This document shows, one piece after another, positions 3,131 to 63,247 of a stretch of 64,000 nt of DNA (position 1 is the first letter of the stretch; each line of letters opens with the position of its first letter). Location of the stretch: positions 13,618 through 77,617 of the IMG/VR virus record IMGVR_UViG_3300014627_000002; one strand, given 5' to 3'. The translations under genes were made by a program, and so were the position numbers. The DNA is from a virus. The notes beneath the pieces are model-generated. The model had not been told where the DNA came from. It saw only the letters and a list, made by a program, of their open reading frames with translations, and searched no databases.

Positions 3131-3171
3131 TAGGAATATGGAAAAAACTGGAAATTTCTACTTCATAAAAT
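3131..3171 (+). promoter_or_regulatory. late-type promoter candidate (AGGAATA family)
   Basis: TAGGAATATGGAAAAAACTGG, then TAAAAT at motif positions 36-41. It lies 33 nt upstream of the 2117-aa gene. Confidence 0.55.
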
Positions 3172-3203
3172 GGGGGTGGTTCAACCATAAAACAGAGTAG
3201 GCT

Positions 3204-6200
3204 ATGCCATTCAACAATACTGCCCGTGCGGGTTTGCAAGTTTTTTCAGATGCTTTATCAGCACTGAAAAACAAAGTTTCCCCATCTCATGCACCAACTG
3301 GTGTATATGAATTTCAAGATGAGAAAATTACGCCAACCAAGCGCCAGAAGGCAAACAATGCGGCCGTAAGTCTGTTACGGCAATTACAGAATGAATCGGG
3401 GTTAAAGGCGACAGCTGAACAGAAGGTCACTTTATCGCGGTACACCGGTAAAGGGGGAAATTTAGAAGTAGAAGGGGTAAAGGGGAGCCAATATGAATAC
3501 TACACACCGGTCCCTTTAGCTAATGCACTGTGGGACCTCTTAAAAGAACATGGCTTTGACGGCGGCGCCGTACTCGATCCTTGCGCGGGGACTGGTATTT
3601 TTGCAGCTGGCCGACCTGAATCAGTGGTGATGCAGTCCGTAGAGCTTAATGATGTTTCTGGCGGTATTAATGCGTTGGTAAATGACCAGGCAAATCACAA
3701 TGTCATTGTAAGCCCTTTTGAGAAAATCGCTTCTCAGACGCAAGACAATGTTTATGATGCTGTTATTACTAATGTGCCGTTCGGTTCACGTGGAGATCGG
3801 GGCGATAATGCCCGCCATGATATTTATTCAGATGATGATTTAGACTCATACTTTGTTAAACGGTCAATTGACAAATTAAAGCACGGTAAACTGGCCGTAT
3901 TTATTGCTCACCCAAAATTACTTACGGGTGCCGGTCATAAGAAGTTCCGTCAATATATTTCTCTACGTGCTGAACTGGTGGGAGCATACCGCCTGCCTAA
4001 CAAGGTATTCCAAGCTACAGGCGCAGATGTAGTAACTGATGTTCTGGTATTTCGCAAACATACTGAAGAACTGACACAGAAAATTGAAAACCTATATGAC
4101 AATGGTTCACTTCAAGTACTTCAAGATTCCCGCATTCTGGATGCCGATATAATTGACGGTCGATATTACAAGGCTGAAGGTCAAAAAAACGTACTTGGCC
4201 AAAGTACGATAGTCAAACATGCAAAATTTAAAACAGATGTAGAAGCTGTTTTAAGTGATGAAAGCCTGCCGAATATCTTAAAACTGATTCGCCGTTTTCC
4301 AGACAGCCGTATTAATTATGGGATGCTGGAATTAACAGAAATGAAGCCAGTTTTACCGATACAAGAAGGTGATATTCGTGTCATCGGCGGCACTACATTT
4401 GAATATCAGGATGGTAAATGGATTAGCACAGGCCAGACAGCCACTTATAGTAATGCTGAAAGCTTTAGTAAGGCCCTCACAGCTTTTATGTCAGGCATGA
4501 CTTATGTTGATCTGATGGCTTATCAGAGTCATTGTGTGGCATCACATTACAAGTTATCTGCATGGGCTGGCCAGTTAATTGATGTAGTACAAAGCACAGG
4601 TGTAGAAACTTATGCACACTGGCTGGTCCAGTTTGCACTGTATGAAGCTTTACAGGCCGAAGCCTATAACAGCTATGCTCAGAACTATCCTAAGCTTACA
4701 AGTGCTTTAAAGGGCATCGCGGGGCAAGTTGGTAAAAAACCATATAAACATGCTTCAGTTAAGACCCTGGTAACGTTTAACAGTAAGGCTTTCGATAAAA
4801 ATTCAGCTGATGGCCTGTCAGCCTATTGGTATGGCAGCACTATTGAAATTGCACAGGCACTAGATGCCAAAGGCGCTTATGAAAATGCAATTTATATGGG
4901 TCGTGCTAAAGACTTTATGGTATCCGTTGATGAAATCCGGCAGACCGATCCTAATTTTGACCCATTGGCTAATGAAGATTATGCAATTTCAGGGGACGGT
5001 CAGTATGTCACGTTAAATCGGGACTATTACACGGGCAATCACGGCGAATTTTTACAGCAGATTGATGCACAGATTGAAGCCGCAACAGATCCTAAAATAC
5101 GTGCAAAACTGGTCCAGCAACGTAAAAAATCATTTGAGCATGTTGATTATGTCGATGTGGCCAATATTAATTTAGGTTTACGTGCTACCAACATTGATAT
5201 ACAGGTCAAAAGTGATTTTCTAAGCCTGTATGGTGGGGATGCAGTGACAGTCGATGAAGACGGTCGCATTCGCTTAAAAGACAAGCAAGAGCCATTAGAT
5301 CGCATTATCCGCATTATGAAGCGGGACGGGGTGCAAGGTGCTCAACATCGTTGGGTTCAAACGTTCTTCTTAAACCGTATCTTGGATTCAGTTAATAACA
5401 ATGTCCGCCTAACATTGAAGGCGAATAAGGATGAAGTATCTAAGCAGGATCATGACCTGGTATTTAAGGCTTTTTTAGAATATGCAAATGAGCTAGATGC
5501 AACCTTTAGTGCTTATCTAAAAGCCAATATCGGGTTTATGGAAGACCTAGATGCAAAAGTAAATGACCCAATGCATAAAGAAATGCAGAGTGAGCTAGAT
5601 ACTTCACCAGTAGAGGTCAAAGGCTTTGCACCTAAGTTTGCAACATTTAAAGCGATGCAGACTTATCAAAATGCAGAAGTACGCCGTTTAAGTCGCCGTT
5701 TTGAAGGAATTACCGGCTTTGATGTAGGTTTGGGTAAGACACTCACTTCAATTGCAGCTGCACAAAACCTGCATAATATTGGCGTTAAAAAGCGTACCTT
5801 GTTTGTGGTTCCATCACATACGATTTCTAAATGGTATCGTGATATGCAAATGTCGTTAGATGATTACAGTGATGTATTAGTCATCGGCTTAAAGGGCAAT
5901 ACACTAAGTTCGGTCAATAGTAGCCATTACGGTGCTGACTTAAACCTATTGCTTAGTGAACCCTATCGCAAGATCCTGATTACTAGTGATGCTTTCACTA
6001 TGATTCCGCTACGTGACCGCACCATTGAAAAATATTATGAAAGTAAAAAGGCAAAAATCGATTTTTCAAAAGATAAAGACCGAGAAAAATGGAACGCATT
6101 TATTGGCAAGAAAAAAGAACCACTTCAAAAAGATGTAGGCCGCCTACCATTTTTTGAGGACCTGAATATTGATAGCATCATTTTTGATGAAGCGCAGATG

Positions 6201-9200
6201 TTTAAAAATGGCGATGCCAGTGAAGGTTTTGGAAATTTCCAGTCTATTAAGGGCCTTTCATTATTAGCAGAAGCACAGTTATCGGACCGGGCAATTTCGG
6301 CCAAAATCAAGTCTGAATATGTTCGGGGTACTAACCCGCTTAAAGATGGTGTTGTATTGCTAAGTGCTACACCTGTAACCAATAGCCCGTCAGAAATTCT
6401 AACCATGCTGTCACTGGCCATAGGTGAGAAGAAAGCTAAAAATATGCTCGGTGGGGCTGCCATTGATTCTGTAGATGACTTTTTAAGTACTTTTGCTCAT
6501 ACCGAGTCAATTAGTGGGGTGGACCTGCTGGGTGCCGAACGTGCAGATGAAACCTTTACCGGATTTAAGAATGTCGAATTGCTTAAAAACGTTTTGCATA
6601 GTGTTGGAAACATTCAGACAGCGCGGGAAAATGATTTAAAAATTCCGGCTCAAGAAGATGTTAAAACAAATGTCAGTTTAGGTAGTGAAGACCGCCAGAC
6701 GCTTGCTGATCTGAAACGTGCATACAACATTGCCCGTCAAATGGGTAAAGGTGGGCCAGTCCTGGCAGATGAAGACGATATTAAGTTTTTGCATGAAATG
6801 ATGGGGAAACTTGGCGAATCTGAAACTTTGATCGGGCATCCATTTAACCTGATTACCAAAATGCAAGATTTGATCTTGATGGGAAGTGAGTCAGTACTTT
6901 CCCGAGCGATGTATGTCAATTACCTGCCTGAAGATCAAGAAAAGGCTCAAAAGGTTATTGATGACTTTAACAAAAAGCCAGTGAAGGTAACGTCTACTCG
7001 ATCCTTTCCATTGGTTGATAAAGCAGATGTAAAAATCAAAAAACGGGGAAAAACCATAGGTGATGCAGATGAACTTGAGATTACCGTTCGTGCTTTCCTT
7101 GATGAAGAAAATAACCGCATTGGCTTGACTGCAAACGATACAAAGGCAATTGCAGGACTAATGACCCTGGCAGATAAGGCTAAATTAGCCCTTAAACCTA
7201 AGCTGTCATCTAAAATGCAGGCACTTATTGATAATGTAAAAACAGAAATGGCTACGCCTAAACATAATGGTCACGCCAAGCAAATTATTTTCTGTGACAC
7301 ATTGGCCATGCATCACATTATCAAGCAGGCTTTGATTGAATACTGCGGAGTAGAAAAGTCCCGTATTGCAATTTTAAATGCTGCAATCAAGCCAGATGGC
7401 AGTAACGGCGCTGTTAAAAGTGAAGATGTTCAGGATATTCAGGACGGCTTTGCTACTGATAAATACACCATTGTCATTGCTAATAAGAAAGCTGATACCG
7501 GTATTGATCTGCAAAAAGGCACCCAGGCTATTCACCATTTAACAACCGGCTGGACACCTGATAGCTTGCAACAGCGTAATGGCCGTGGTGTACGTCAAGG
7601 TAATGAGCAAGAGCGCGTTAATGTGTATATGTATTCAGCAAATGGCTCATTTGATGAATATAAATTGCATGTGATTAATGGTAAATCAGACTGGATTAAT
7701 CAGTTAATGAATAAGGGAGCTACCGTATCTGGCACGCTGCAGGTATCTAGTGAGCTTACAGATGATGATTATGACCTGATGATTCAGGCAGACAGTGCCG
7801 AAGCCATTGAAGGGCTTTTAAAACAGCGTCAGGAACGCGAGAATCAAGCACGTCATGACCGGGCAGTTAAACATACTGATCTGTTAATCAAAATTGCAAA
7901 AAAAGCAGCGTCACAGGCAGACCGTACAGAGTCTAGTGTTGCTCAGGAAATCATTATTAAGGATTACGAAAAGTACATCACTTTAATGCGCCGTGATGCT
8001 AAGGCAGAGGACGCGGCTGAACGTAACCAGATCCTAGAGCAAAAGCAGGCCATTGTAAGTCAGTATGATAGTTATCTGAAAAATAACAGTGTTGAAAATT
8101 GGGATAGGGGTTTAAAGCGCAAGGCAGAGGAAAAAGGCCAGGCATCACTTTGGTTGTCTTCATTACATCATTCTGGTTTTGAAGTCGCTGCAACAGAGTT
8201 CAGTAAATTAGATGAGCAAGTTTTAAATTCTGATACCTCACTTTCAAGCCGTGCAAAAGCTAGTTTTCAGTCATTAAAACGTATGGCAGACAGTACACGT
8301 GAACAGCTTTTAAAATATGCAGACAGTCCATTTACTGATGAAGAACGGGCCATGTTACTTGATGGTACCGCCGTTCTTGATGAGAACCAGCAAATCTTAA
8401 AGCATGGTGATCTTTTAAAGGCAGAAGGAAGTAACGGCGCTATATACGGTATGCGTGTTATTGCTGAATCTCAAGACTACTATACTTTCACTGAAAGCTT
8501 TGTCCGTAATAGACAACCAATTGAACCGCATGAGCGTGATGCAGCAATTCAAAGCTTTATTGCTTATGAAACACAGTTGCTAAAAAAGAATGAGGTGTTC
8601 AGTTACGGTAGTTTAAATAGCGAAACATTAAACTCAAATAAACGCTTTAGCCGGGTTTATCCAGAGATCCAGACAGCAGTTGAAGAACAGTTGAAGGCAG
8701 AGCATGATAACTGGATTCACCAGAGTAGCGTATACAACAGTCCAGGACTCCAATTGAAGTCCAACCATGCTCTACACTGGCCAGAAATTACCTTTCCTCA
8801 ATTCTTTAAAAATAACTTGCAGCTGGCGACTGTTTTTAATGCGCCATTTTCAGGAATCATTGAAAGTATTGAACTCGGTGATGCAATTGCTCGAGTCAAA
8901 ATTCCTAACACTAAAGCGGACTTGGTGCAGCGTAAATATCCGATGAATCTAACTCGCTTGGCTGAGCAAATTTTTTCAGTAGCTGAAACAGAAAAAATTG
9001 CGGTAGATTTACAACATGCTGAATCTATTATCAATAATGAATTTATGTATTACTTTGCAGAGAAAGTAGATAAAGCTTTATCTGCATACTATAAGGGAAG
9101 TTTAAAGCTGCTTTATCCGCATCATACAGTCTTGACTGATGACCAAAAGGTAGAGATTGCAGAATATATTTTAGAACATGCTTTAAATGGCTTAGTAAGT

Positions 9201-9557
9201 TCTTATACACATCTAATGGAATGGGTACAGGAAAAGTCTGCATTTAAAGGAATTCTAAAGCTATATGCATTAGATGATAATGACCCCGAAGTTATTGTAA
9301 AACAGCATGTAAAACTACACGGCGGCATGGGTAAATTTAAGAATATTAAAATTACTGGTGTAGCTTTCTTGGGTACCGGCAGTTTTGGAGCAGCTTTCAA
9401 GTCAACCTATAAAGATGATATGAAGGCGTATGCTGACTCGATCCGTAAGCGTTGTGCTTGGGACAACCGCAATACCCGTTGGGTAGTTGAACCTGAAGTC
9501 ATGGTATGGATGATGAAACAGGACTGGTTTAATATGAATGAAGTAGAATTTTACTAA
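3204..9557 (+). CDS. giant N6-adenine methyltransferase / SNF2-family helicase fusion (P1 DarB-like anti-restriction protein)
   Basis: 2117-aa ORF. The N-terminus has gamma-class MTase motifs (LDPCAGTGIF, then ITNVPFG). Helicase motifs are GFDVGLGKT (~nt 5727), IIFDEAQ (~nt 6184) and QQRNGRGVRQG (~nt 7569). The architecture matches P1 DarB. Confidence 0.85.
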   Translation: MPFNNTARAGLQVFSDALSALKNKVSPSHAPTGVYEFQDEKITPTKRQKANNAAVSLLRQLQNESGLKATAEQKVTLSRYTGKGGNLEVEGVKGSQYEYYTPVPLANALWDLLKEHGFDGGAVLDPCAGTGIFAAGRPESVVMQSVELNDVSGGINALVNDQANHNVIVSPFEKIASQTQDNVYDAVITNVPFGSRGDRGDNARHDIYSDDDLDSYFVKRSIDKLKHGKLAVFIAHPKLLTGAGHKKFRQYISLRAELVGAYRLPNKVFQATGADVVTDVLVFRKHTEELTQKIENLYDNGSLQVLQDSRILDADIIDGRYYKAEGQKNVLGQSTIVKHAKFKTDVEAVLSDESLPNILKLIRRFPDSRINYGMLELTEMKPVLPIQEGDIRVIGGTTFEYQDGKWISTGQTATYSNAESFSKALTAFMSGMTYVDLMAYQSHCVASHYKLSAWAGQLIDVVQSTGVETYAHWLVQFALYEALQAEAYNSYAQNYPKLTSALKGIAGQVGKKPYKHASVKTLVTFNSKAFDKNSADGLSAYWYGSTIEIAQALDAKGAYENAIYMGRAKDFMVSVDEIRQTDPNFDPLANEDYAISGDGQYVTLNRDYYTGNHGEFLQQIDAQIEAATDPKIRAKLVQQRKKSFEHVDYVDVANINLGLRATNIDIQVKSDFLSLYGGDAVTVDEDGRIRLKDKQEPLDRIIRIMKRDGVQGAQHRWVQTFFLNRILDSVNNNVRLTLKANKDEVSKQDHDLVFKAFLEYANELDATFSAYLKANIGFMEDLDAKVNDPMHKEMQSELDTSPVEVKGFAPKFATFKAMQTYQNAEVRRLSRRFEGITGFDVGLGKTLTSIAAAQNLHNIGVKKRTLFVVPSHTISKWYRDMQMSLDDYSDVLVIGLKGNTLSSVNSSHYGADLNLLLSEPYRKILITSDAFTMIPLRDRTIEKYYESKKAKIDFSKDKDREKWNAFIGKKKEPLQKDVGRLPFFEDLNIDSIIFDEAQMFKNGDASEGFGNFQSIKGLSLLAEAQLSDRAISAKIKSEYVRGTNPLKDGVVLLSATPVTNSPSEILTMLSLAIGEKKAKNMLGGAAIDSVDDFLSTFAHTESISGVDLLGAERADETFTGFKNVELLKNVLHSVGNIQTARENDLKIPAQEDVKTNVSLGSEDRQTLADLKRAYNIARQMGKGGPVLADEDDIKFLHEMMGKLGESETLIGHPFNLITKMQDLILMGSESVLSRAMYVNYLPEDQEKAQKVIDDFNKKPVKVTSTRSFPLVDKADVKIKKRGKTIGDADELEITVRAFLDEENNRIGLTANDTKAIAGLMTLADKAKLALKPKLSSKMQALIDNVKTEMATPKHNGHAKQIIFCDTLAMHHIIKQALIEYCGVEKSRIAILNAAIKPDGSNGAVKSEDVQDIQDGFATDKYTIVIANKKADTGIDLQKGTQAIHHLTTGWTPDSLQQRNGRGVRQGNEQERVNVYMYSANGSFDEYKLHVINGKSDWINQLMNKGATVSGTLQVSSELTDDDYDLMIQADSAEAIEGLLKQRQERENQARHDRAVKHTDLLIKIAKKAASQADRTESSVAQEIIIKDYEKYITLMRRDAKAEDAAERNQILEQKQAIVSQYDSYLKNNSVENWDRGLKRKAEEKGQASLWLSSLHHSGFEVAATEFSKLDEQVLNSDTSLSSRAKASFQSLKRMADSTREQLLKYADSPFTDEERAMLLDGTAVLDENQQILKHGDLLKAEGSNGAIYGMRVIAESQDYYTFTESFVRNRQPIEPHERDAAIQSFIAYETQLLKKNEVFSYGSLNSETLNSNKRFSRVYPEIQTAVEEQLKAEHDNWIHQSSVYNSPGLQLKSNHALHWPEITFPQFFKNNLQLATVFNAPFSGIIESIELGDAIARVKIPNTKADLVQRKYPMNLTRLAEQIFSVAETEKIAVDLQHAESIINNEFMYYFAEKVDKALSAYYKGSLKLLYPHHTVLTDDQKVEIAEYILEHALNGLVSSYTHLMEWVQEKSAFKGILKLYALDDNDPEVIVKQHVKLHGGMGKFKNIKITGVAFLGTGSFGAAFKSTYKDDMKAYADSIRKRCAWDNRNTRWVVEPEVMVWMMKQDWFNMNEVEFY

Positions 9558-10554: not shown

Positions 10555-10571
10555 GGTAAATAGACAAAAAT

Positions 10572-10598
10572 AGCCCTATAAATTAATAGGGCTTTTTT
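10572..10598 (+). terminator. rho-independent terminator
   Basis: AGCCCTA-TAAATTAA-TAGGGCT followed by TTTTTT. It ends directly at the next ATG. Confidence 0.7.
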
Positions 10599-34137: not shown

Positions 34138-34165
34138 CGCATTAAAATATGCGAATTAGCATAAT
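34138..34165 (+). promoter_or_regulatory. early-type promoter/operator
   Basis: CGCAT-TAAAAT-ATGCG palindrome runs into ATGCGAATTAGCATAAT. This is the same box as at 24558 and 44297. Confidence 0.55.
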
Positions 34166-34303
34166 ATGTAGGTTATAACCTCTATATTATGCATATTGAT
34201 TAACAAATAGACTACTAAAAGCCTGAATATAGTAAATAAGAATATACAGAATCGCATAAATTAATTAACATTTATACATAAAAGCATAAAACTAGGGTAA
34301 TGC

Positions 34304-34758: not shown

Positions 34759-35427
34759 ATGAATATGCAGACTGAAGACAAAGAAGCTTTTTTTGATGAA
34801 AAAAGACTGATCACAGTCGTTGGCATCAATTGTTTACGTGCACGGGAAATTGCTGGCTTAACCCGTAAAGAAGCCCAGGCACGTATTTTTAGATATAAAA
34901 ACCCGGATATGTTTGCTAACCGGATATGCGAGATCGAAACCGGCAACAAGAAAATTGATCTTAAAATTCTATATCGCATGTGCGTTGAGTACTCATGCAG
35001 TGCTGACTATCTGTTGGGCCTAAGCAATGACTTTGAGCGTAACCTGGCATCGTCTTATTCAGGTATGGTTTTTAATTCGGTCCGTGGTAGCGTTTTGGAA
35101 ATGACTGAGCGTGTTTGTACGCAAATGTCAGAGATCGTGCGCTTTCTGCCGCCGTTTCAGGGGGAATTATTAAAAAACAGTGCCAAGAATACAGTAGATA
35201 CTATAGATCAGCATTTGCATGATCTGGCGTTTAAGGGCTCTTATCCGGATATTGTTGATGCTTATAATGATTTAAAGGCGAAGGTTCAGATGTTTGATAC
35301 CTTCTTTGCTAAGCAGATGCGGATTATGGAGTTAAATATGCTGGACCAGTTAAATCATAAGGATGATGAACTTTCTAGCCGTACTATGACCGACTATACT
35401 GCATTGCCTGTACCTGAGAAGTGTTAA
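34759..35427 (+). CDS. XRE-family helix-turn-helix regulator
   Basis: LRAREIAGLTRKEAQARIF...ICEIETGNKKIDLKILYRMCVEYSCSADYLLGLSND is a typical XRE HTH with the LLGLS tail. Confidence 0.65.
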   Translation: MNMQTEDKEAFFDEKRLITVVGINCLRAREIAGLTRKEAQARIFRYKNPDMFANRICEIETGNKKIDLKILYRMCVEYSCSADYLLGLSNDFERNLASSYSGMVFNSVRGSVLEMTERVCTQMSEIVRFLPPFQGELLKNSAKNTVDTIDQHLHDLAFKGSYPDIVDAYNDLKAKVQMFDTFFAKQMRIMELNMLDQLNHKDDELSSRTMTDYTALPVPEKC

Positions 35428-36566: not shown

Positions 36567-36601
36567 GGCCTAGTTACCTGCAGTGACTAGGCTTTTTTTT
36601 A
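36567..36601 (+). terminator. rho-independent terminator
   Basis: GCCTAGT..ACTAGGC stem followed by TTTTTTTT. Confidence 0.75.
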
Positions 36602-36672
36602 TGGAATAACGAAAAAAGCCAGTGGACCGCACCGCTGATAATTGGCTCAAGCATACTGAATGAGCTGATTTT

Positions 36673-54685: not shown

Positions 54686-56353
54686 ATGAGTAAGACGATT
54701 CAGTTAAAACTAACAAATATCGGTATTTCACACTGTCTAAATGCAGAAACCAGCGGAATTAAACTTGAGCTGGACCGCATTGTTTTTAGTTCAGATAATT
54801 TTGAATCCGTTGATTATGATCCACATACAGAAATTAAAAATATTATTCATGAAGCTCCAATCGCTGTCGGTGGGAAGTCTGAGGACCAGCGCAGCTTACG
54901 CTTCGTTTCTTATATAAATTCACCCACAGAACTAGAAATTCGTTCACTCGGGATTTATACAAAAGATAATGTTTTATTCGCCGTTGCAAGCGTAGCCGCA
55001 GGAAACTTATTCAAAGTTTATAGTGGCGTTAGCTTTGTCGCAGCTTTTGGAATGAGCATTGCACCCGCATTTGCAAATGTTATTGAAATCAAAACTGATC
55101 AAAACGCAGCGCTTGCTTTGGTTATGATGAATGATCATGAAAGGCATGCTAATCCCCATCCTCAGTACGCGCAGCAGCTCAACAATTTAGTAAAGGCGCT
55201 CTATCACGTAAATTCATGGCATGGTACTAACAGTGCTGAATATGATCCGGCAATCGCATTATTTCCCCTGTTTGGCTATGAAACAACGTGGACATTATGG
55301 CCCTATGTCCCGAAAGGTGTAGGGACCATTCAAGACCCTATAGGCGCTGTATCGGGAATAAGCTCAGGTGCCAATGTTCAAATAGCCTCTACCCGTATTT
55401 GGCAGCGTTTAGAAGACGGCGCAACGGGTCCCACTTACTCACTGACGGTTGATAAAAATTCTGTAAATGAAGGGGATAGTCTGGAATTTACTTTGCAGAC
55501 GACAGGTTTAGCTGCAGGTACTCCCGTAGACTGGACTATAACCGGTGTTCAGGCTAGTGATATTTTACCAGCTGCATTAACAGGTCAGTTTGTAATTGAT
55601 GCTACGGGTAAAGCCAAGTTAAGCGTCCAGGTGGTTGAAGACAATAAAACTGACGGCAATAAAACGCTCATACTGGCGCTGACTTACATCAAAAATAAGC
55701 AGGTGTCTGTATTTATAAATGACACAAGCAAATATCCTGAAGGCCAAGAAGTATATTATCAGGGCACACATTCAATAAACGTAGAACCTAATCAAATCAT
55801 TGTCATTGATATGTATGCCCCGGGCGGCGGTGGCGGTGGTTCAATTTATTCTGGCAGTTCACAAAATCCTGTAGGAAAAGATGGCGGTAATAACATTCTT
55901 GCGCTTGGTGAAGTTCAATTTATTGCCGGTGGTGGTAAAGCTGGTACCGGTGGCGTTTGGGGTAATGGTTCATCATTCACTAATGGTGAAGCTGGCACAG
56001 GCGGCATTAATACGATTGCAGATAACCCGCAATTTATTATTCTGGAAAATAAAAAGGGTAATTCTGCTGTAATCGGTTCACGTTGGAGCCGTCAACCAGG
56101 TGGTGCCGGTATATTATCTAGCATCGGGACATTAAATGGTGGCGGTGCTGGGGGCTGGGGTATTGGGGATGAAAAATGGTCATACGGCGGTGGCGGTGGC
56201 GGTGGTGGCCGCTTAAAAGTCCAGTTTACTAATACAAATGAGGAACCTATAACTTTAAATCTAGTCATAGGTGCATTTGGCGCTGGTTGGAAAGGTGCAG
56301 GTAACGCTGGGGATGATGGTGGTATTGGTTTTGCGATAGTCAATACACTGTAA
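54686..56353 (+). CDS. tail fibre protein (tail-collar-type N-terminus, Calx-beta-like middle, glycine-rich C-terminal domain)
   Basis: The N-terminus IQLKLTNIGISHCLNAETSGIKLELDRIVFSSDNF resembles P2 gpH-type fibre N-termini. The middle segment is NEGDSLEFTLQTTG..GTPVDWTITG. The C-terminus is rich in GGGGG runs. Confidence 0.65.
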   Translation: MSKTIQLKLTNIGISHCLNAETSGIKLELDRIVFSSDNFESVDYDPHTEIKNIIHEAPIAVGGKSEDQRSLRFVSYINSPTELEIRSLGIYTKDNVLFAVASVAAGNLFKVYSGVSFVAAFGMSIAPAFANVIEIKTDQNAALALVMMNDHERHANPHPQYAQQLNNLVKALYHVNSWHGTNSAEYDPAIALFPLFGYETTWTLWPYVPKGVGTIQDPIGAVSGISSGANVQIASTRIWQRLEDGATGPTYSLTVDKNSVNEGDSLEFTLQTTGLAAGTPVDWTITGVQASDILPAALTGQFVIDATGKAKLSVQVVEDNKTDGNKTLILALTYIKNKQVSVFINDTSKYPEGQEVYYQGTHSINVEPNQIIVIDMYAPGGGGGGSIYSGSSQNPVGKDGGNNILALGEVQFIAGGGKAGTGGVWGNGSSFTNGEAGTGGINTIADNPQFIILENKKGNSAVIGSRWSRQPGGAGILSSIGTLNGGGAGGWGIGDEKWSYGGGGGGGGRLKVQFTNTNEEPITLNLVIGAFGAGWKGAGNAGDDGGIGFAIVNTL

Positions 56354-56357
56354 AGAA

Positions 56358-56398
56358 CAGGAATACCGAAAAATCCAGTTTAGGGACTAAATCATAAT
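56358..56398 (+). promoter_or_regulatory. late-type promoter candidate (AGGAATA family) overlapping a terminator hairpin
   Basis: CAGGAATACCGAAAAATCCAG, then CATAAT at positions 36-41. The -10 lies in the loop of the 56384-56417 hairpin. Confidence 0.4.
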
Positions 56399-56417
56399 AG
56401 GTTTAGTCCTTTTTTTT
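56384..56417 (+). terminator. rho-independent terminator after the tail fibre gene
   Basis: GGACTAAA..TTTAGTCC stem followed by TTTTTTTT. Confidence 0.65.
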
Positions 56418-56427
56418 GCGCAAAGCC

Positions 56428-56712
56428 ATGTTAAATGAATACCACAATGCAGTACGGCGCTATATAGAGTCTAACCGCAAGAAAGCTGAGTTTGGTGCTC
56501 GTTTATTTCATTACCAGATTGGTGAGGATGAAGTAAATGATCCGTCATTAGCAAGTTATCGAGCATATAACACCAATGCACATACCGATATTATTGTGCT
56601 GGCCAGCGGCAATTCTTTTTCATTTCAGCCCTTACCTCTCAAGATTATCACCTTGCCGGATTTGAGCATTTTAATTCAGTTGCAGAAGCGATACGGGGTA
56701 AACAATGGTTGA
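56428..56712 (+). CDS. hypothetical protein
   Basis: ATG 56428 (the listed ORF uses TTG 56416). No clear SD. Confidence 0.4.
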   Translation: MLNEYHNAVRRYIESNRKKAEFGARLFHYQIGEDEVNDPSLASYRAYNTNAHTDIIVLASGNSFSFQPLPLKIITLPDLSILIQLQKRYGVNNG

Positions 56713-57766
56713 TCAATTACCTGCAGATCGCTTTAGAGAAGCCTTACTAAAAGGTGGGCTTGAAAATGAGTTTAAAACCCGTCAGCGTGCGGCCAAAGGT
56801 CAGCGCCGTATAGCTGAAGAAGAACGTGAAAGCAGTCAGGATAAAAAAGGCAGTAAACCGACTTTTCTACGCCCTTCTGATATAGCTGGCGATTATGATT
56901 TTAAACGCGCCTTGCAGACGACTTTAGGCATGCCAGAGGGTGTGACCCGCCCATTGACTAAAGAGGACCTGGCGGCATTTGCTGACAATATCGAGCAAAT
57001 GAAAAAAGCCTATAAAGGGGGCATTACCGTATCGCAAGTTATTTCACTCAGCCGGCAAGAGGATATTGACCGGGCCAATGAGCAGATTAAGTATGCGGTG
57101 CCATCTGCCCGAAAAAATGGTGTATTTCGCTTTACTACAAATTCAGGACCAGGGAGTGATGTACCTTTTCATTATGTCCAAGTTGAATTTTTGGCTTTCA
57201 ATGAACTGGTATTTCATCCAGACCGTGTGAAAGCTACAACTATTCAAAATCGTTTGGCCAATGGCCGGGTTAAGTTTGAGTGTGATTGTGGTCGCTTTAA
57301 TTTCTGGTTCAGATATTTAAATACAGTCGCAGGTACCGTGCTCGGTCGTAAAGAAGGCGGCTTTCCAAAGATCAGGAACCCAAGTACAACAGGTATTGCA
57401 TGTAAGCACATTATCCGGGTTATGCACTGGCTTAAATCTGCTTCAGGGCGTCAGTTCTTGAGCCAGGCACTTGATAAAGAGCGTACTAAGCAAGTCGGCT
57501 CTAAATATAAAACTGGCAAAAAGCTGATGATTCAGCACTTGACTGAACAAGTGGCCAAAGAACATAGCAAACGTAATCACATTAAATCCAACTTGCAAAA
57601 AGAAGTAGCCCGGTTAGAAGCCAGGGCAAAACGAGAAGCACAAAACTTGATTCGCAAGCAACGTGAAACTGAAACAAAGCATCAAGCCGCCCTAAAACTT
57701 AAAAACCTGTTTGAGCAAGGCATTCTCAATGAAGCTGAATATCAGTTGCTTACTAAACGTCTATAG
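56705..57766 (+). CDS. SWIM zinc-finger protein
   Basis: CDCGRFNFW...TTGIACKHIIRV fits the SWIM CxC..CxH signature. The C-terminus is a basic coiled coil. Confidence 0.65.
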   Translation: MVDQLPADRFREALLKGGLENEFKTRQRAAKGQRRIAEEERESSQDKKGSKPTFLRPSDIAGDYDFKRALQTTLGMPEGVTRPLTKEDLAAFADNIEQMKKAYKGGITVSQVISLSRQEDIDRANEQIKYAVPSARKNGVFRFTTNSGPGSDVPFHYVQVEFLAFNELVFHPDRVKATTIQNRLANGRVKFECDCGRFNFWFRYLNTVAGTVLGRKEGGFPKIRNPSTTGIACKHIIRVMHWLKSASGRQFLSQALDKERTKQVGSKYKTGKKLMIQHLTEQVAKEHSKRNHIKSNLQKEVARLEARAKREAQNLIRKQRETETKHQAALKLKNLFEQGILNEAEYQLLTKRL

Positions 57767-57773
57767 GTGATCT

Positions 57774-58352
57774 ATGTTAAGTCCCATTAATCCAATTGCT
57801 AATCGCGTGGCAGAAGGACGGCGCTTTGCATCCCGTTCTATTGTCCTTACTAATCTTTCATCAATATCGTGCTTTGCCTTTCGCCGTAAAGTTATACCTG
57901 CAGTAGAAGGGGAAACACGGGCTGAATCTATTTATCCGGGTGGTTTTGTACTCAGCAGTAGTGAAGAACATGCAACAGAGTATGAGGATCTAGGCTATGC
58001 CATGTTATTACTCAATAAATTCTCGGGTGGATCGATGCATAACGATGGGGATGATATTAATTTTGGTGAAGCTGTTTTTTATGCACAAATTGAGCCCGTG
58101 AATAAGGCCGATTATGGCAAACGCACTGAAATGTTAAAAAATATCCCCGATTGGCAACCCAAGAAGGGTGATGTACTGGCAATGGTGATTTCAGAAGACA
58201 TTATTAAATGGGTAGAGGTAACTGGTGTGACTGGCCAGACCCTAAACTCACAGCATGGCGTTGAATATGTCTTAAATGTACGCGATAAGCTCATGCATCT
58301 GGACCCTTTTAAGCAAGAAGATGATTTACTTGAACCAGATGACAGCCCTTAA
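57774..58352 (+). CDS. hypothetical virion-module protein
   Basis: 192-aa ORF. Confidence 0.55.
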   Translation: MLSPINPIANRVAEGRRFASRSIVLTNLSSISCFAFRRKVIPAVEGETRAESIYPGGFVLSSSEEHATEYEDLGYAMLLLNKFSGGSMHNDGDDINFGEAVFYAQIEPVNKADYGKRTEMLKNIPDWQPKKGDVLAMVISEDIIKWVEVTGVTGQTLNSQHGVEYVLNVRDKLMHLDPFKQEDDLLEPDDSP

Positions 58353-58409
58353 AAAATCTAAAAAAACTGATTTTCAATTAAAGTCCTGATTTTTCAGGAC
58401 TTTCAATTT

Positions 58410-58450
58410 TAGGAATATAAAAAAACAGGGGTTTTTTTTATTGCCAGAAT
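58410..58450 (+). promoter_or_regulatory. late-type promoter candidate (AGGAATA family)
   Basis: TAGGAATATAAAAAAACAGGG, then CAGAAT at positions 36-41. It lies 43 nt upstream of the capsid-like gene. Confidence 0.55.
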
Positions 58451-58492
58451 AGGCGTATCGGTGATGCCAATAACGGCAATGAGGATACATCT

Positions 58493-60448
58493 ATGTTTGA
58501 TCGTAATAAGTTAGCAGAAGAAGTAAAACTACAGACTCAACAGGTCGCAGTCACTTCAAAATTTATGGGTTTAATTGGCTTTGGTCAAAAAACTGAACCA
58601 GGGGCTTCTAGTTTTGGGGCTATTTATGACAGCCTGGTAGCTAATGCGGCAAAAGATAATATTTCAAAAGCAGCGTTTATCCCACAAGCTTTACTGGATC
58701 TTGAAGAAAAAGTCGGTAAAGCCGGTATGAGTCATATTTTTGACTCTATTGATACTGGTGTAAAAGCTTATCGTAACCGTCACGGCGGGGCTATGCCTGA
58801 TGCTGCTTTGGTAGCGTCTGCCATAAATGCGGGCTCATTATTACATACCGGTTTAGATCGTAGTAAAACCGGTGGCATTTATGACTCAGCCAGTGATGCG
58901 TTTGGTGGTCCAGCAGTTCAGCAGTTCTATGATAGCTTGAGCAAAAGCGGCTCTACTCATACCGCTGAAGTGCCAAGTCTGGCAATGGTTACGATTGCTA
59001 TGACTATTGCTAATGCTATGCCGGTTGTAAGTTATTTACCGAACCCGAAAGGCACTAATACCGTACCTTTAGTTTATGTCCGTCAGGTGGCTGCTAATAC
59101 CTATGGACAGATTGAACAAGAAGACTTCTTGGACGGCTTAAAAGCGGCTAATCAGTATTTTGATGCGGTACACCGCTTTGAAATGAACCCAAGTGCTGAC
59201 CGCAAAACCTTTACTATTACTACAAAACGTTGTGTAGATCCTAAAACATTAAAACCTGTTGAGGATGCTGGACGCTTACCATTTGTTTTAGGTGGTACGG
59301 CGATTACCGTTGGTGGTGTATTCGTCGCGCATGATGAACAAAGCAATCAGTCAGGTGGTAGCACTGCCGGGACATTTAATATTTATCCTCACAATGTGAA
59401 TGGCTTCACGACTAAAGGTGGAAAGAATCAGGTTGCTTCAGGCCGAGTTGACCTAAGCAATGATCAAATTACTGTTATCTTTGAAAAGGCCATTCCTGAA
59501 GGGGTAAGCGTTAAAGCCAGCGTATATGCTAACTTTGAAGCAAAAGACAATAACGGCAACTACATTTTACAGGCACCAAGCGTTGATACACGTAACGAAT
59601 ATGGTGAAGTAAGTGCTTATGCAATTCGTGCGAAGTATACCGCCACTATCGATTCAATTACGCAGATGCAGAATGAATTAGGCGTAGATGTACGTGCTGC
59701 ATTTGTTGCAGTGGTAATCGGTAAAGTAATGTTTGAACAGACATGCCGATTGCTTAAAGAAGCACGTGAGCTGGCTGAAGGAAGTTTTAGCGCTGATGGC
59801 AAACTTACCCTTGTACGTGAGTTAGATTTAAGTCGCGGTAATGACCTGACACAAGCATTCAACAAATCGGCCGATATTATCGCTGAGGTTATTCCAGCAC
59901 TTGAGGATATGAAACGCCGTATTACTGAGCACACAAACCATAGTCCAGATGGTTACGATGTCTATGTCACTGGCTCTCTATCTACTTTGGTTCGCTCACT
60001 GGCTGATGACACCAACTTCATTCCAACTGGCCTGACATTAGGTGTACCGAACAATATTACCCGTATGGGCTCACGTGGTACCGATAACTTCTATTATGTG
60101 CCGTCTTCAGCTGGTGTTTTAAACGATGGTGAAATGAAACTGGTAATCGGTGTAGATGATACCGATCCGGCTAATCCTAAGCAGATTACTGAAGACGTTA
60201 CCTTTGGTGAAATGCTAATTGTTGCGCGTAACTCGGTTGCTGCTAAATCAGTATTTATCGGCCATATCGCAGTACCCGTTATTACTGAAGATGTTCGTGA
60301 AAAGGCTTTTGAGCAGGGTGTAACGGTCTATACCCGCCAAGCGGCACAGAAAAACCGTAATACACGTTTTGGTAGTCAAGTAGGTCTATTACGTGTAATC
60401 AAACTGGTTAAGGCTGTGACAACTGAACTGTCTGAAAAAGCTGCTTAA
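58493..60448 (+). CDS. major capsid protein candidate (large, gp23/HK97-fold-like)
   Basis: 651 aa. It is a mono-cistronic unit between a late-type promoter and a strong terminator. The segment AIRAKYTATIDSITQMQNELGVDVRAAFVAVVIGKVMFEQTCRLLKEA resembles the spine-helix region of T4 gp23-like capsid proteins. Confidence 0.5.
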   Translation: MFDRNKLAEEVKLQTQQVAVTSKFMGLIGFGQKTEPGASSFGAIYDSLVANAAKDNISKAAFIPQALLDLEEKVGKAGMSHIFDSIDTGVKAYRNRHGGAMPDAALVASAINAGSLLHTGLDRSKTGGIYDSASDAFGGPAVQQFYDSLSKSGSTHTAEVPSLAMVTIAMTIANAMPVVSYLPNPKGTNTVPLVYVRQVAANTYGQIEQEDFLDGLKAANQYFDAVHRFEMNPSADRKTFTITTKRCVDPKTLKPVEDAGRLPFVLGGTAITVGGVFVAHDEQSNQSGGSTAGTFNIYPHNVNGFTTKGGKNQVASGRVDLSNDQITVIFEKAIPEGVSVKASVYANFEAKDNNGNYILQAPSVDTRNEYGEVSAYAIRAKYTATIDSITQMQNELGVDVRAAFVAVVIGKVMFEQTCRLLKEARELAEGSFSADGKLTLVRELDLSRGNDLTQAFNKSADIIAEVIPALEDMKRRITEHTNHSPDGYDVYVTGSLSTLVRSLADDTNFIPTGLTLGVPNNITRMGSRGTDNFYYVPSSAGVLNDGEMKLVIGVDDTDPANPKQITEDVTFGEMLIVARNSVAAKSVFIGHIAVPVITEDVREKAFEQGVTVYTRQAAQKNRNTRFGSQVGLLRVIKLVKAVTTELSEKAA

Positions 60449-60462
60449 TCATCCGATACAGA

Positions 60463-60488
60463 ACGGCGTGTAAATCGCGCCGTTTTAT
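60463..60488 (+). terminator. rho-independent terminator
   Basis: ACGGCG-TGTAAATCG-CGCCGT followed by TTTATT. Confidence 0.7.
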
Positions 60489-60519
60489 TCAGTCAGTCAA
60501 TATAAATAGGCACAATGTC

Positions 60520-61077
60520 ATGACCGAACAAGTAGAAAAGCCGGTATCTGATGTAGAGCAAGAAAAGCCAAAGCGTAGCCGTAAAAAGGCAGCTACAGAC
60601 GAGGTAGTTGCTCCGCAGTCTAATGATGCCAATGAAAGCGTGAAAGATGCTGAATCTGACGCACAAACCCAGCCTGAAAGCACTGGTGACGGTGAAAAGG
60701 GTCCTGAACCTGCTGCTGATGCTCAAACCCAGCCTGAAAGCACTGGTGACAGTGAAAAAGGTCCTGAATCTGCTGCTGATCAGCAAAAACCAACAGATAT
60801 TTCAAACTTCTTCAAATTGCCAGTTTTTGAGCAAAGCACTGATACAGAGCAAACTGACAACGCAGAAGAAGTTAAACCAGCTTTAGCAGCTAACCAGCTT
60901 TGTATTTTGAATAAAGGTCCGGCTTCTTTTTGTCGTATTAGCGGCAAAAAGTTACCAACTAATATGCCGAGTCTAATTAATTTTGCTTCAACGGCGCAGA
61001 AACAGCGTGCTTTAAGTAACTTTAAGCAATTGAATAACCTGGCTGGCTACGAGCGTTACATTGTGGAGGGTTCATAA
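60520..61077 (+). CDS. acidic protein with a 20-aa tandem repeat (scaffold/decoration-type candidate)
   Basis: It contains DAQTQPESTGDGEKGPEPAA followed by DAQTQPESTGDSEKGPESAA. Confidence 0.6.
   Translation: MTEQVEKPVSDVEQEKPKRSRKKAATDEVVAPQSNDANESVKDAESDAQTQPESTGDGEKGPEPAADAQTQPESTGDSEKGPESAADQQKPTDISNFFKLPVFEQSTDTEQTDNAEEVKPALAANQLCILNKGPASFCRISGKKLPTNMPSLINFASTAQKQRALSNFKQLNNLAGYERYIVEGS
60658..60777 (+). repeat. 60-bp tandem duplication (2 copies) inside a coding region
   Basis: Units 60658-60717 and 60718-60777 differ at only a few positions. Confidence 0.9.
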
Positions 61078-62384
61078 TGAGCTTATACCGTTTAGCAGCT
61101 TCATTCGGAATACTTGCCGCTTCAGTCGTTACTGATGCAGCCACTACAGGTGATTTCTTTGATCTGTATTTTGAACCACACAATATTTTTGATGAGAATA
61201 TTGCTGTTCGTGCGCAAATTTCACAGATTTCAGATGATTTTGATTTAGAAAGTCTAAAACTGAAAATTACCTTTTTTGATGACACCACAGACGATGAGCT
61301 TTACAGCTTCGTCGGCGGCTTAGGTGATGCAAGTAAGAGCAATTCACTTGTTGCAGTCATGGAAGCGAGTCAAGAATTTGCTGATGTTCAGTTAAAACTA
61401 AATATTCAACCGGATGCAGACCTTAAAACAAGCCTGGTGAATTGTCCTTACTTCAATGGCCTGAATGAGCTAGGCCGTAAAGTAACTATCGTGCCCCTAC
61501 CAGCAGGTTCTACAACTCAGAAATTTGATTTATTTGAAACTATTACTGAGCTAGACAATCCACCAACTACGCTTTATATGCAGTTTTACGACAACGTAAA
61601 AGACTATACAGATATGTTGCGTGCAGTTGCTAAGTTGAATTGCCGGATGTGGGTAGAACTGGACCCTACCTTAACCGTAGACCAGGCTATTCAAGTTGCA
61701 GAAGACTTGTTGCCAATGGACCATCGTGTACGTTTCCTATGGTCCCCAATTGTGGCCCGTCCGAAAGGTGCGGTCGGCTTATCGGGAAAGAAAGTCCCGC
61801 GCTTAGCCGGGGGTTTTGTCATTGCTAAGCACATGCTACGTGATGCTGCTACAAACTCACAAGGCATTCCGCCGTTGCATCGGCCAATTGCGAACTATGA
61901 CTATCCAATCCCATTTATCGGAATTGAACAGCGCAATGATGTAAAGCTAACTGACCCGGTGCGTAAACGTCTGGCCAATGCCTGTATCAACGTGGTCCAG
62001 CGGATTAAGTTTGATACCGGTATTCGCTTTGTAATTGGTGATGTTTTAACGGCTGAGGGTGATAACAACAGCATTTTGAAGCTGACCAATGCAAGCGATA
62101 TTTCAATGTATATCGATAATCGCCTGAAACAGATTGTTAAACGTCATCTGACCAAATCCGATGAAGATTTTATCGGTGATGCATTGAAGGAATGTAAGCG
62201 CTTTATGGATGCATGTACGACAAAAGAACGCAAATTGTTGGTACAGCCCGAAGAATTTAGCGGGCTTTATCAGCTAAGTATCGTACCACGTCAAGACCGT
62301 CCTGACGCCGTTGATATAAAAGCCCGGTATCGTCCGCACGGCGCAAAACGTGCCGCATTCTTTAATTCTGAAGTAGTTAAATAA
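61077..62384 (+). CDS. virion structural protein with tail-sheath-like features
   Basis: 435 aa with SD GGAGGG and a TAATG overlap. The C-terminal half (VPRLAGGFVIAKHMLRD..; LANACINVVQRIKFDTGIRFVIGDVLTA..ISMYIDNRLKQIV) resembles sheath C-terminal domains. The call is tentative. Confidence 0.55.
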   Translation: MSLYRLAASFGILAASVVTDAATTGDFFDLYFEPHNIFDENIAVRAQISQISDDFDLESLKLKITFFDDTTDDELYSFVGGLGDASKSNSLVAVMEASQEFADVQLKLNIQPDADLKTSLVNCPYFNGLNELGRKVTIVPLPAGSTTQKFDLFETITELDNPPTTLYMQFYDNVKDYTDMLRAVAKLNCRMWVELDPTLTVDQAIQVAEDLLPMDHRVRFLWSPIVARPKGAVGLSGKKVPRLAGGFVIAKHMLRDAATNSQGIPPLHRPIANYDYPIPFIGIEQRNDVKLTDPVRKRLANACINVVQRIKFDTGIRFVIGDVLTAEGDNNSILKLTNASDISMYIDNRLKQIVKRHLTKSDEDFIGDALKECKRFMDACTTKERKLLVQPEEFSGLYQLSIVPRQDRPDAVDIKARYRPHGAKRAAFFNSEVVK

Positions 62385-62396
62385 GGAATAAAAATC

Positions 62397-63149
62397 ATGA
62401 TGCAAATGTTTGATAGCTTAAACCCACTCAATAAACCGATGGTAGATAGCGCAGCTGCTAATGCAGTGTCACAGATTGAAGAAACTGGCCTTGATGTTGC
62501 TGCTCTTAATTCTGAAGTTCAGAATATGCGTAAAGCAGCGTTGGTCGTGGTTTTCTTACTTACTCAGGCGATTATTGATAAAGAGCTTGATGAGGATGAA
62601 CTACCTTCAGATCGCTTGGGTGCATTAATTGCAGGTTTTGCGGCTAATGATGAAACTGATGATGAAATTGAGGTTGATCAGTCTACAGTAGATATTTTCA
62701 CAGCAAACGTACAAGATGCCCTTGAAACGCTGGGTGTGAGTCAGAACGTCATCAAAACCATGTTTGGTGAGGGTGAAGAAGCAGAAGATGCAATCGAAGT
62801 TGCTGCTGAAACTGTAGAATCCAACACGCCGCAAGGCGATGATCTGGATAGCCTGATTGATCTCTTTGCCTATGGTGAGCCAGAAGAAGATGAAGGTCAC
62901 ATGCTGGACGGCGTATCACTTGGTAAAACTACTACCAAAAGCGGAAAATTTGGCAAGGTAATCTATAAAGCGATTAAAGCTATTCGTAACGGAAAAGTTT
63001 CAATCGTGAATAAGCGTATTTCTGGCAAAGTCAAATTGAGTGCAAAACAACGTGCGGCGCTAAATAAAGCCCGTAAAAAAGCCACTAGCAGCCCATCACT
63101 GAAAAAGCGTGCTCGCTCTATGGCGAAGCATAAACAAATGAATATTTAA
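62397..63149 (+). CDS. acidic protein with a basic C-terminal tail
   Basis: 250 aa with SD AAGGAA. The C-terminus is K/R-rich. Confidence 0.6.
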   Translation: MMQMFDSLNPLNKPMVDSAAANAVSQIEETGLDVAALNSEVQNMRKAALVVVFLLTQAIIDKELDEDELPSDRLGALIAGFAANDETDDEIEVDQSTVDIFTANVQDALETLGVSQNVIKTMFGEGEEAEDAIEVAAETVESNTPQGDDLDSLIDLFAYGEPEEDEGHMLDGVSLGKTTTKSGKFGKVIYKAIKAIRNGKVSIVNKRISGKVKLSAKQRAALNKARKKATSSPSLKKRARSMAKHKQMNI

Positions 63150-63176
63150 ATATTTAAACACTGTTTAAGCCATAAT

Positions 63177-63200
63177 AAAGCCTGCTTTTGCAGGCTTTAT
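63177..63200 (+). terminator. rho-independent terminator
   Basis: AAAGCCTGC-TTTT-GCAGGCTTT followed by ATTT. Confidence 0.7.
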
Positions 63201-63205
63201 TTAGT

Positions 63206-63247
63206 TAGGAATAGTGAAAAAACTGGTAGTTAAAAATATAGAAAAAT
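63206..63247 (+). promoter_or_regulatory. late-type promoter candidate (AGGAATA family)
   Basis: TAGGAATAGTGAAAAAACTGG, then AAAAAT at positions 37-42. Confidence 0.5.

Follow-up and report, generated by a model that had tools for sequence, protein, structure and literature searches.

The DNA stretch considered here (64,000 nucleotides, positions 13,618 to 77,617 of IMG/VR virus record IMGVR_UViG_3300014627_000002; the whole stretch is called the window below) is, as judged from its protein relationships, part of an Acinetobacter phage-plasmid of 60-80 kb, P1-like but distant from P1. It carries a family of promoter-like sites in which a GGAAT(A) box is followed by an A-run and, at a nearly fixed distance, by a -10-like hexamer. 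All of these sites point rightward. Here and in related elements they precede almost all blocks of virion, packaging and lysis genes, and in the window also a gene for a DarB-like giant protein.

Homologues of only six P1 proteins (DarB, Cin, PmgM, Pro, PacB and gp25) were found in the window by tblastn with P1 proteins, which indicates a distant relative of P1. Megablast of 43000-63000 gave no nucleotide-level match in phage and plasmid collections. The window TerL is 75% identical to that of plasmid p1_010055 of Acinetobacter sp. WCHA55 (pWCHA55), which is syntenic with the window, 60% to that of A. soli pGFJ2, 56% to that of A. defluvii p1_010030 (L015), 54% to that of the temperate A. baumannii phage vB_AbaM_ABMM1 (ABMM1) and 34% to P1 PacB. 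Further comparisons involve L003, an IMG/VR contig of A. lwoffii, and L011, a plasmid of Pseudomonas atacamensis (NZ_CP070504, 40000-81190). The 'AB' phage-plasmids (Pfeifer et al.) form a separate group of roughly 110 kb.

Sites with a GGAAT box and a -10-like hexamer

To avoid circularity, the sites were scored with a weight matrix of 46 columns derived from 15 sites in two relatives only (pWCHA55 and contig L003). The members and doubtful members of the family are as follows.

3131..3171, plus strand: predicted late promoter of the DarB-like gene 3204-9557; TAGGAATA, A-run, TAAAAT at 3166-3171; 29.3 bits
10196..10236, plus strand: weak and uncertain member upstream of gene 10270-10554; CAGGAATA, no A-run, TTAAAT; below 12 bits
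10530..10571, plus strand: predicted late promoter of the PmgG-like operon starting at 10599; CAGGAATA, A-run, AAAAAT; 28.7 bits
12177..12218, plus strand: possible internal promoter of the holin-like and endolysin genes 12300-13967; 15.3 bits; similar sequence in pWCHA55
36601..36642, plus strand: predicted late promoter of the tail-lysozyme/tape-measure-like gene 36673-38778; ATGGAATA, A-run, GATAAT; 24.4 bits
43160..43200, plus strand: predicted late promoter of the membrane-protein gene 43245-43955, directly after terminator 43129-43152; CAAAAT; 27.6 bits
48876..48916, plus strand: weak variant upstream of gene 48934-49458 (transmembrane segment and coiled coil, spanin-like); GCTTTTAAAC in place of the A-run, CAGAAT; 15.1 bits
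49450..49490, plus strand: predicted late promoter of the head-processing/terminase operon (Pro-like gene at 49524 to TerL at 51822); CACAAT; 29.7 bits
53802..53843, plus strand: predicted late promoter after TerL, in front of the TerL-nuclease paralogue 53872-54615; TATAAC one base later
54617: degenerate promoter-like copy; 14.3 bits
56358..56398, plus strand: predicted late promoter of the baseplate/tail operon 56416-58352; CATAAT; 29.9 bits
58410..58450, plus strand: predicted late promoter of the capsid-like/sheath operon 58493-63149; CAGAAT; 31.6 bits, the top score of all sites
63206..63247, plus strand: predicted late promoter of the structural gene starting at 63278; AAAAAT one base later; 24.5 bits

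Nine of these sites were described in the initial annotation, and their coordinates, sequences and hexamers proved correct, the hexamer occupying motif positions 36-41 (37-42 at 53802 and 63206). The membership of that list has to be revised: 10530 and 36601, and possibly 12177, had been missed, while 48876 is weak and 10196 uncertain. With the matrix, sites 3131, 10530, 36601, 43160, 49450, 56358, 58410 and 63206 score 24-32 bits; the best score over 100 first-order Markov randomisations was 20.9 bits, and no match on the minus strand exceeded 17 bits. The scores of 48876, 12177 and 54617 are marginal. Sites 53802 and 10196 both stay below 12 bits, the former because its hexamer is displaced by one base and the latter because its A-run is missing. 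The gene downstream of 10196 is absent from pWCHA55. Site 12177 is located inside open reading frame 11992-12303 and has GGAAG as its box in A. defluvii, and its resemblance to the family may reflect coding constraint.

The uniform rightward orientation claimed earlier is borne out by the octamer YAGGAATA, all 12 matches of which in the window are on the plus strand (mean of 4.75 in dinucleotide shuffles, one of 100 of which reaches 12). Two of them (735 and 25357) are intragenic, lack both A-run and hexamer, and look like chance matches. The composite pattern GGAAT-N28/29-NANAAT occurs 11 times on the plus strand and never on the minus strand, whereas randomised sequences have on average 2.6 matches, and never more than 7, on the two strands combined; two of the window matches (13305 and 21663) are intragenic.

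In an alignment of 26 sites, conservation covers GGAATA (positions 3-8, 1.5-2.2 bits per column), AAAAA (12-16) and the hexamer cAnAAT (36-41), in which A40 is invariant and after which AG or GCC follows; G or C is weakly favoured at 18-21, and T at 23-27. Positions 23-30 carry 0.03-0.75 bit, and the hexamer up to 1.7 bits. The A-run had also been described as ending in CTG, which is true of only three or four window sites and is not conserved in the relatives. The reported lack of a TTGACA-like -35 element at 17 bp is correct: a scan for sigma-70 promoters calls none of the sites, and the A-run stands at the -35 position. Terminators lie directly upstream of 36601, 43160, 58410 and 63206, so that the description of several sites as standing just after a terminator is accurate.

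Gene context, conservation and leader hairpins

All genes behind the sites are virion, packaging, lysis or DarB-like genes, as the initial annotation had it. In order along the window, the sites precede the DarB-like gene, the PmgG-like/lysis block, the tail lysozyme, the membrane protein, the spanin-like gene, the operon from the Pro-like gene to TerL, the TerL-nuclease paralogue, the baseplate operon, the operon from the capsid-like gene to the sheath gene, and structural gene 63278. Every confident site is either intergenic or overlaps the preceding stop codon. The sites are always upstream of the gene start and on the gene strand, with the start codon at motif positions 59-86. Canonical sigma-70 -35/-10 pairs are depleted in 43000-62999 (24 versus 47.6 expected), and none of them coincides with a motif site.

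The early, replication and immunity genes are without late-type sites; their intergenic regions contain clusters of GCATAA/TTATGC instead. This motif has 25 of its 70 occurrences in the intergenic 8.4% of the window, with clusters at 14045, 15325-15346, 19760-19792, 20749-20850 (the divergent region between the repressor and a cro-like gene), 24556-24639, 26400-26430 and 34159-34290. No late site carries it. The clusters are probably operators of the CI/LexA-like repressor and mark a second, early promoter class. The last of them is of particular relevance here:

34159..34290: GCATAA/TTATGC cluster, putative early/operator-type control region in front of operon 34304-36553, which holds the candidate activator

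Orthologous promoters were compared upstream of the Pro-like, capsid-like, baseplate, PmgG-like, lysozyme, post-TerL and post-sheath genes in the window, pWCHA55, A. soli pGFJ2, the A. lwoffii contig (L003/L017) and A. defluvii p1_010030. The proteins of the four relatives are about 40-75% identical to those of the window. The GGAAT box and the hexamer are kept at a distance of 28 or 29 bp while the spacers have diverged; the check on spacing in homologous elements that had been proposed with the nine sites thus has a positive outcome. The five-way comparison includes site 49450, the downstream genes of which are homologous to P1 Pro and PacB, and site 58410 is kept as well. Site 3131 has its counterpart upstream of the N-6 methylase/DarB-like gene of pWCHA55, 10530 in pWCHA55, A. 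soli and ABMM1, 36601 in pWCHA55, L013, L017 and L018, 48876 at L003:1249 and pWCHA55:16150, and 63206 in L003 and pWCHA55. The counterparts of 53802 in pWCHA55, A. soli and L003 share even its hexamer TATAAC. The earlier proposal of a late promoter class thus gains comparative support from the fixed geometry of box and hexamer in five Acinetobacter elements and from the late type of the genes downstream.

Counted over whole elements, GGAAT-N28/29-NANAAT is found 13 times on the gene strand and once on the opposite strand in pWCHA55, 10 and 1 times in A. soli, and 9 and 1 times in A. defluvii, compared with 11 and 0 in the window; randomised versions of the elements give means of 2.6-4.5 for both strands together. 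ABMM1 has GGAAT sites at chance level only (1 and 1), and its late genes are preceded by GGAAC-N29-NANAAT (13 on the gene strand, 0 on the opposite strand, random mean 1.7). The four other elements have 9-13 GGAAT and 0-2 GGAAC sites. P1 shows no excess of GGAAY-N28/29-hexamer sites. The promoter architecture is thus family-wide, and its distal box appears to have changed specificity in one lineage, that of ABMM1. In the more distant P. atacamensis relative (L011), the regions upstream of late genes seem to contain another recurring motif, GCGCCTA-like, and not GGAAY-N28/29-hexamer.

Hairpins are common around the hexamer. At site 10530, the hexamer is followed by the hairpin AGCCCTAT..ATAGGGCT and then by T6 and ATG. 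Stretches from hexamer -25 to hexamer +50 were folded for 56 predicted promoters of five elements (sites in L005-L010 and L015-L016), and they fold more stably than shuffled versions (mean z = -1.95; z < -1.5 in 59%). Relative to the first base of the hexamer (numbered 0), the 5' arm is most often located at +6 to +11, in the discriminator, and the 3' arm at +20 to +27. The 5' arm fills the six bases just after the hexamer; the 3' arm, which holds a Shine-Dalgarno-like AGGG, is often followed by a T-run and ATG. Hairpin leaders of this kind are exemplified by 10566-10598, 49485-49523 and 56382-56411. The last of these was called by a terminator scan and carries the hexamer CATAAT of the baseplate promoter (56358) in its loop; it shows compensatory changes at 9 of 12 stem pairs across five orthologues, and its stem is followed by T7-8. 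In the AGCCC..GGGCT type of hairpin, only two of eight pairs co-vary.

A start about 7 nt after the hexamer would leave late transcripts without the 5' arm. The leaders predicted with such a start fold with -1 to -8 kcal/mol, except for the long leader of 12177, while for read-through RNA hairpins of -14 to -22 kcal/mol are predicted at the eight sites that have one. Such RNA would fold into the hairpin and be terminated or have its Shine-Dalgarno region paired, whereas activator-started transcripts lacking the 5' arm would be translated. The hairpins may in this way insulate the late genes from read-through.

The candidate reader of the box and rival explanations

The sites are quite probably activator-dependent late promoters of a P1-like phage-plasmid, and the best candidate for their reader is an XRE-type protein encoded in the window. 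We infer from the arrangement of the site that host sigma-70 RNA polymerase would recognise the hexamer, cAnAAT, whose first A and final T stand at -11 and -7 if the hexamer is taken to span -12 to -7. Since a -35 hexamer is lacking, productive binding of the polymerase would depend on an element-encoded, sequence-specific activator on an asymmetric upstream module. In this module the GGAAT(A) box occupies about -45 to -40, and the A-tract about -36 to -32, i.e., the -35 position. The 28 bp between box and hexamer equal the canonical 17 bp plus 11 bp, approximately one helical turn, which would place the box on the same DNA face as a -35 element. Strict orientation, an asymmetric box and rigid spacing point to a single protein-polymerase complex touching both elements, and hence to an activator-dependent promoter without a -35 element. 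The activator would be supplied by an early, repressor-controlled operon, and the virion, packaging, lysis and DarB-like genes would then be switched on together, late. The protein in question, which would probably act as a dimer, is the following:

34759..35427, plus strand: candidate activator of 222 amino acids with an N-terminal XRE-type helix-turn-helix (HTH) domain and a helical C-terminal domain

An element-encoded activator or sigma-like factor had been proposed initially. The element-encoded reader is supported indirectly: the replacement of GGAAT by GGAAC at all ABMM1 sites, within the same host genus, favours a reader that co-evolves with the box over a host factor. The sigma-like alternative is unlikely: nothing is conserved 16-17 bp past the box, and scans of the window proteins (nearly all genes with PHROGs, selected candidates with Pfam and NCBIfam) revealed no sigma factor.

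In a conservation matrix of all window proteins, the only regulators present in all five relatives are the CI/LexA-like repressor and 34759-35427. The latter is 48% identical to its homologue in pWCHA55, 41% in A. soli, 52% in L013 and 25% in ABMM1; it occurs in every element with this promoter architecture and is not found in P1. The gene order is fixed (VRR-NUC nuclease, HTH protein, TerS-like protein, tail lysozyme), and its operon follows a terminator and the GCATAA/TTATGC cluster. In the P. atacamensis relative, an HTH homologue directly precedes the annotated small terminase. Scans with the HTH alignment detected only two loci in genome contigs and one in viral contigs, a number too small for examining co-variation with the box. 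In A. defluvii p1_010030 (L015 32314-33618, minus strand), the HTH protein is an in-frame tandem duplication of 434 amino acids with two diverged whole copies, which suggests that the protein works as a dimer. By structure, the HTH domain is most similar to C.BclI and C.AhdI, controllers of restriction-modification systems, and by sequence to ImmR. On these grounds, 34759-35427 is the best activator candidate, though the assignment is tentative and somewhat short of an even chance.

Several observations weigh against this assignment. The AlphaFold model of the protein is of low confidence (pLDDT, the predicted local distance difference test score, is 66), and the model, Foldseek and sequence searches against PDB yielded a generic XRE domain only. 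The putative recognition helix, NRxSE, hardly differs between ABMM1 and elements with GGAAT boxes, and divergent helix variants (PNIISI) still occur with GGAATA boxes, so that protein and box do not clearly co-vary. XRE-type dimers usually bind palindromes, and the GGAAT box is not palindromic. The reader could also be a host factor or an unrecognised phage protein.

Three sets of activator candidates had been named initially, and 34759-35427 is the best supported among them. Protein 35432-36553 is more likely a PacA-like small terminase: its counterpart at the same position in the P. atacamensis relative, with no detectable sequence similarity, is annotated as small terminase, and the number of its N-terminal repeats does not track the motif. 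It has two tandem HTH-like repeats of about 55 residues at its N-terminus, and its orthologues in ABMM1 and A. defluvii have one. The Arc-like proteins were rejected because they are not conserved in the relatives. Two further proteins were considered as well. A Fis homologue (26557-26832; HTH_8, GNQTKAAEMLGLNRGTLRKK), located about 10 kb from the Cin-like invertase gene, was discarded as a reader: pWCHA55 and L013 have it, but A. soli and ABMM1 do not. Gene 48934-49458, which precedes the Pro-like/terminase operon, was examined as an analogue of the P1 activator Lpa; its product has a transmembrane segment and a coiled coil, matches no family and looks spanin-like, and the gene was discarded as an Lpa analogue.

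The sites could be ordinary host-dependent promoters, in which box and A-tract form an UP-element-like or Fis/IHF-type site that renders a weak -10 element functional with no activator from the phage; any late timing would then result from repressor release or copy number. The phasing of A-tract and T-tract (12-16 and 23-27) does resemble curved, UP-like DNA, a Fis homologue is encoded in the window and a host Fis exists. However, the box differs from UP elements in its asymmetry and its richness in G, and A. soli and ABMM1 keep the architecture without having the phage Fis homologue; the shift to GGAAC throughout ABMM1 is also difficult to explain with an unchanged host genus. Repressor release alone would not time these sites, as they carry no GCATAA operator-like motif. 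This explanation is unlikely. Promoters for an ECF (extracytoplasmic function)-like sigma factor of phage or host are quite improbable. In that case GGAAT or GGAAC would be the -35 element, the -10 element would lie in the T-rich patch (TCTGA-like) 16-17 bp further on, and transcription would start at the CA of the hexamer, which would thus belong to the first transcribed bases. GGAAC is indeed known as the classical core of ECF -35 elements, CA is a frequent beginning of the hexamer, and some sites (e.g., 49450, 43160 and pWCHA55 50719) have TCTG or TCAG about 16-17 bp past the box. Yet positions 23-30, where the -10 element would be expected, carry little information compared with the hexamer, ABMM1 lacks a conserved element 16-17 bp past GGAAC while conserving the hexamer at N29, and the scans mentioned above gave no sigma-family match. 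The start required would, moreover, mean that most late mRNAs begin with a terminator-like hairpin and its U-run, immediately followed by AUG.

The hairpins themselves invite a reading as antitermination, with hairpin and U-run as leader terminator, the box as a Q-like loading site and the hexamer as a sigma-dependent pause. A hairpin and T-run do separate hexamer and ATG at most sites in all five elements, and lambda Q needs a -10-like sequence near the start. What makes this highly improbable is that upstream of the hexamer there is no recognisable sigma-70 promoter to produce the paused complex, that each genome has more than ten sites and not one, and that PHROG and Pfam scans of the window proteins gave no Q-family match; with the 5' arm in the six bases after the hexamer, a start at the usual distance would also remove it. 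Finally, the motif might not be a promoter at all, but a terminator-linked dispersed repeat (an insulator, or similar to REP, repetitive extragenic palindromic, sequences) or a signal for RNA processing or translation. Although some copies stand next to terminators and AGGA is similar to the core of a Shine-Dalgarno sequence, no start codon stands at Shine-Dalgarno distance after AGGA, the spacing to a -10-like hexamer is fixed, the sites always precede a gene start on the gene strand, and they are conserved at orthologous positions while their flanks diverge. Such a role is barely credible.

Within the preferred reading, that of activator-dependent late promoters, a more specific proposal can be formulated for the group. 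Acinetobacter P1-like phage-plasmids would possess a late system in which an XRE-fold activator unrelated to Lpa reads an asymmetric GGAAY box located one helical turn upstream of the -35 position, the box being GGAAT or GGAAC according to lineage and each promoter being insulated by a hairpin or terminator across its own start. In this complete form the proposal is possible but doubtful.

Other features of the element and comparison with known systems

Other genes of the window were assigned mostly by PHROG matches:

3204-9557: DarB-like giant protein (PHROG)
from 10599: PmgG-like protein (PHROG)
from 12999: endolysin (PHROG)
from 15663: plasmid replication initiator (PHROG)
16717-17406, minus strand: Cin-like invertase
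19893-20678, minus strand: CI/LexA-like repressor (PHROG)
36673-38778: tail-lysozyme/tape-measure-like gene (PHROG)

PHROG scans also revealed ParA, Erf, DnaC-like and methylase genes, and a late block at the right end with Pro-like head processing (49524), TerL (51822), tail fibre, baseplate, capsid-like (58493) and sheath (61077) genes.

The TerL gene (51822-53804) contains an intein-like insert (Hint domain): the alignment with P1 PacB is confined to residues 1-57 and 202-629, and the homologues on the plasmids bear the annotation 'Hint domain-containing homing endonuclease'. Gene 53872-54615, between the predicted post-TerL promoter and the tail-fibre gene, encodes a stand-alone paralogue of the C-terminal nuclease domain of TerL; its sole match in pWCHA55, A. 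soli and ABMM1 is inside TerL itself. The small proteins 30300-30689 and 46602-47015 are paralogous, each with three repeats of the Cys-rich motif GT..Y.Y..CRC.LC, and show weak PHROG matches to N-terminal regions of HTH/HNH proteins. Proteins 14133-15119 and 63278-64000 are alike over about 90 N-terminal residues (M..TE.LENE.GIQ..GV...); the former has GCATAA motifs upstream and the latter a predicted late promoter.

The late and middle promoters of phage Mu, activated by C and Mor, are sigma-70 promoters without a -35 element, at which a small HTH activator of the phage binds just ahead of the -35 region and overlaps it, centred near -43.5. The module of GGAAT and A-tract resembles this geometry, and the window sites are closer to Mu C/Mor or to class II activation than to P1. 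The Mu system differs in having four sites, which are imperfect dyads bound by dimers of the Mor/C family, while the window has about 12 sites with an asymmetric box. No Pfam match to the Mor family was found in ten candidate regulators, nor any family of the Mu Mor/C type in the PHROG scans.

The C proteins of restriction-modification systems (C.BclI, C.AhdI) are dimers of the XRE type and resemble the HTH domain of the candidate activator; they activate transcription when bound next to the -35 region. Their C-boxes are palindromic and serve a single operon. The candidate has an extra helical domain of 130 residues. In T4 middle promoters, an asymmetric MotA box replaces the -35 element at a fixed distance from a good sigma-70 -10 element, with appropriation of sigma by AsiA. 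The MotA box is centred at -30 and the window box at -43, and no homologue of MotA or AsiA was detected in the window.

In the literature that could be searched, no description of these promoters turned up, and the ABMM1 paper contains no promoter analysis. The regulation of this Acinetobacter phage-plasmid group would represent a variant of activator-dependent late promoters for which no earlier description was found. The motif provides a ready map of late transcription units for poorly studied Acinetobacter phage-plasmids of 60-80 kb, a group that includes the cultivable temperate phage ABMM1 of A. baumannii and plasmids of sewage and soil isolates. The natural pair of GGAAT and GGAAC boxes allows box-swap and protein-swap experiments, and the promoters could, together with their activator, be used as tight, orthogonal expression switches in Acinetobacter. 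The hairpins straddling the predicted start suggest a way in which the lysis and virion genes of a plasmid prophage may stay silent in the face of read-through.

The closest counterpart in organisation is P1. About 11 dispersed late promoters of P1 are activated by Lpa (gp10) together with host SspA (PMC10695390, PMC1891329), the latter being a required co-activator of late transcription (PMC1891329). Both P1 and the window element are plasmid-prophage myoviruses with DarB, Pro, PacB, gp25 and PmgM homologues, and both have many dispersed late promoters with a -10 and without a -35 element, located before virion, lysis and packaging operons. The P1 lpa gene is directly upstream of pacA and behind a C1 operator; likewise, the gene of the candidate HTH protein stands before the TerS-like gene and behind a GCATAA cluster. 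The signals themselves are different. The P1 box is a 9-bp inverted repeat, AAGTGACTT, 4 bp upstream of the -10 element and centred at -22, whereas the GGAAT(A) box lies 28-29 bp upstream, at about -45/-41. A P1-type -22 box (AAGTGACTT-like) was not found at the window sites, where positions 23-35 carry at most 0.75 bit. No window protein matches the Lpa family phrog_1704 in PHROG scans (P1 Lpa itself, 8e-85), tblastn of Lpa against the window gave nothing, and BLASTP of Lpa against 34759-35427 gave E = 3. At the P1 late promoters, hairpins over the start are seen only at LPsit and LP23 (mean z = -0.8). With neither the -22 box nor Lpa found, the predicted late promoters of the window are, on present sequence evidence, not members of the P1 Lpa family. 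The analogy with P1 drawn in the initial annotation is therefore retained for the logic, i.e., many late promoters without a -35 element and the placement of the putative activator gene, but not for sequence, geometry or protein: the late-gene organisation of P1 appears to have been rebuilt here with a different DNA signal and probably with a different protein.

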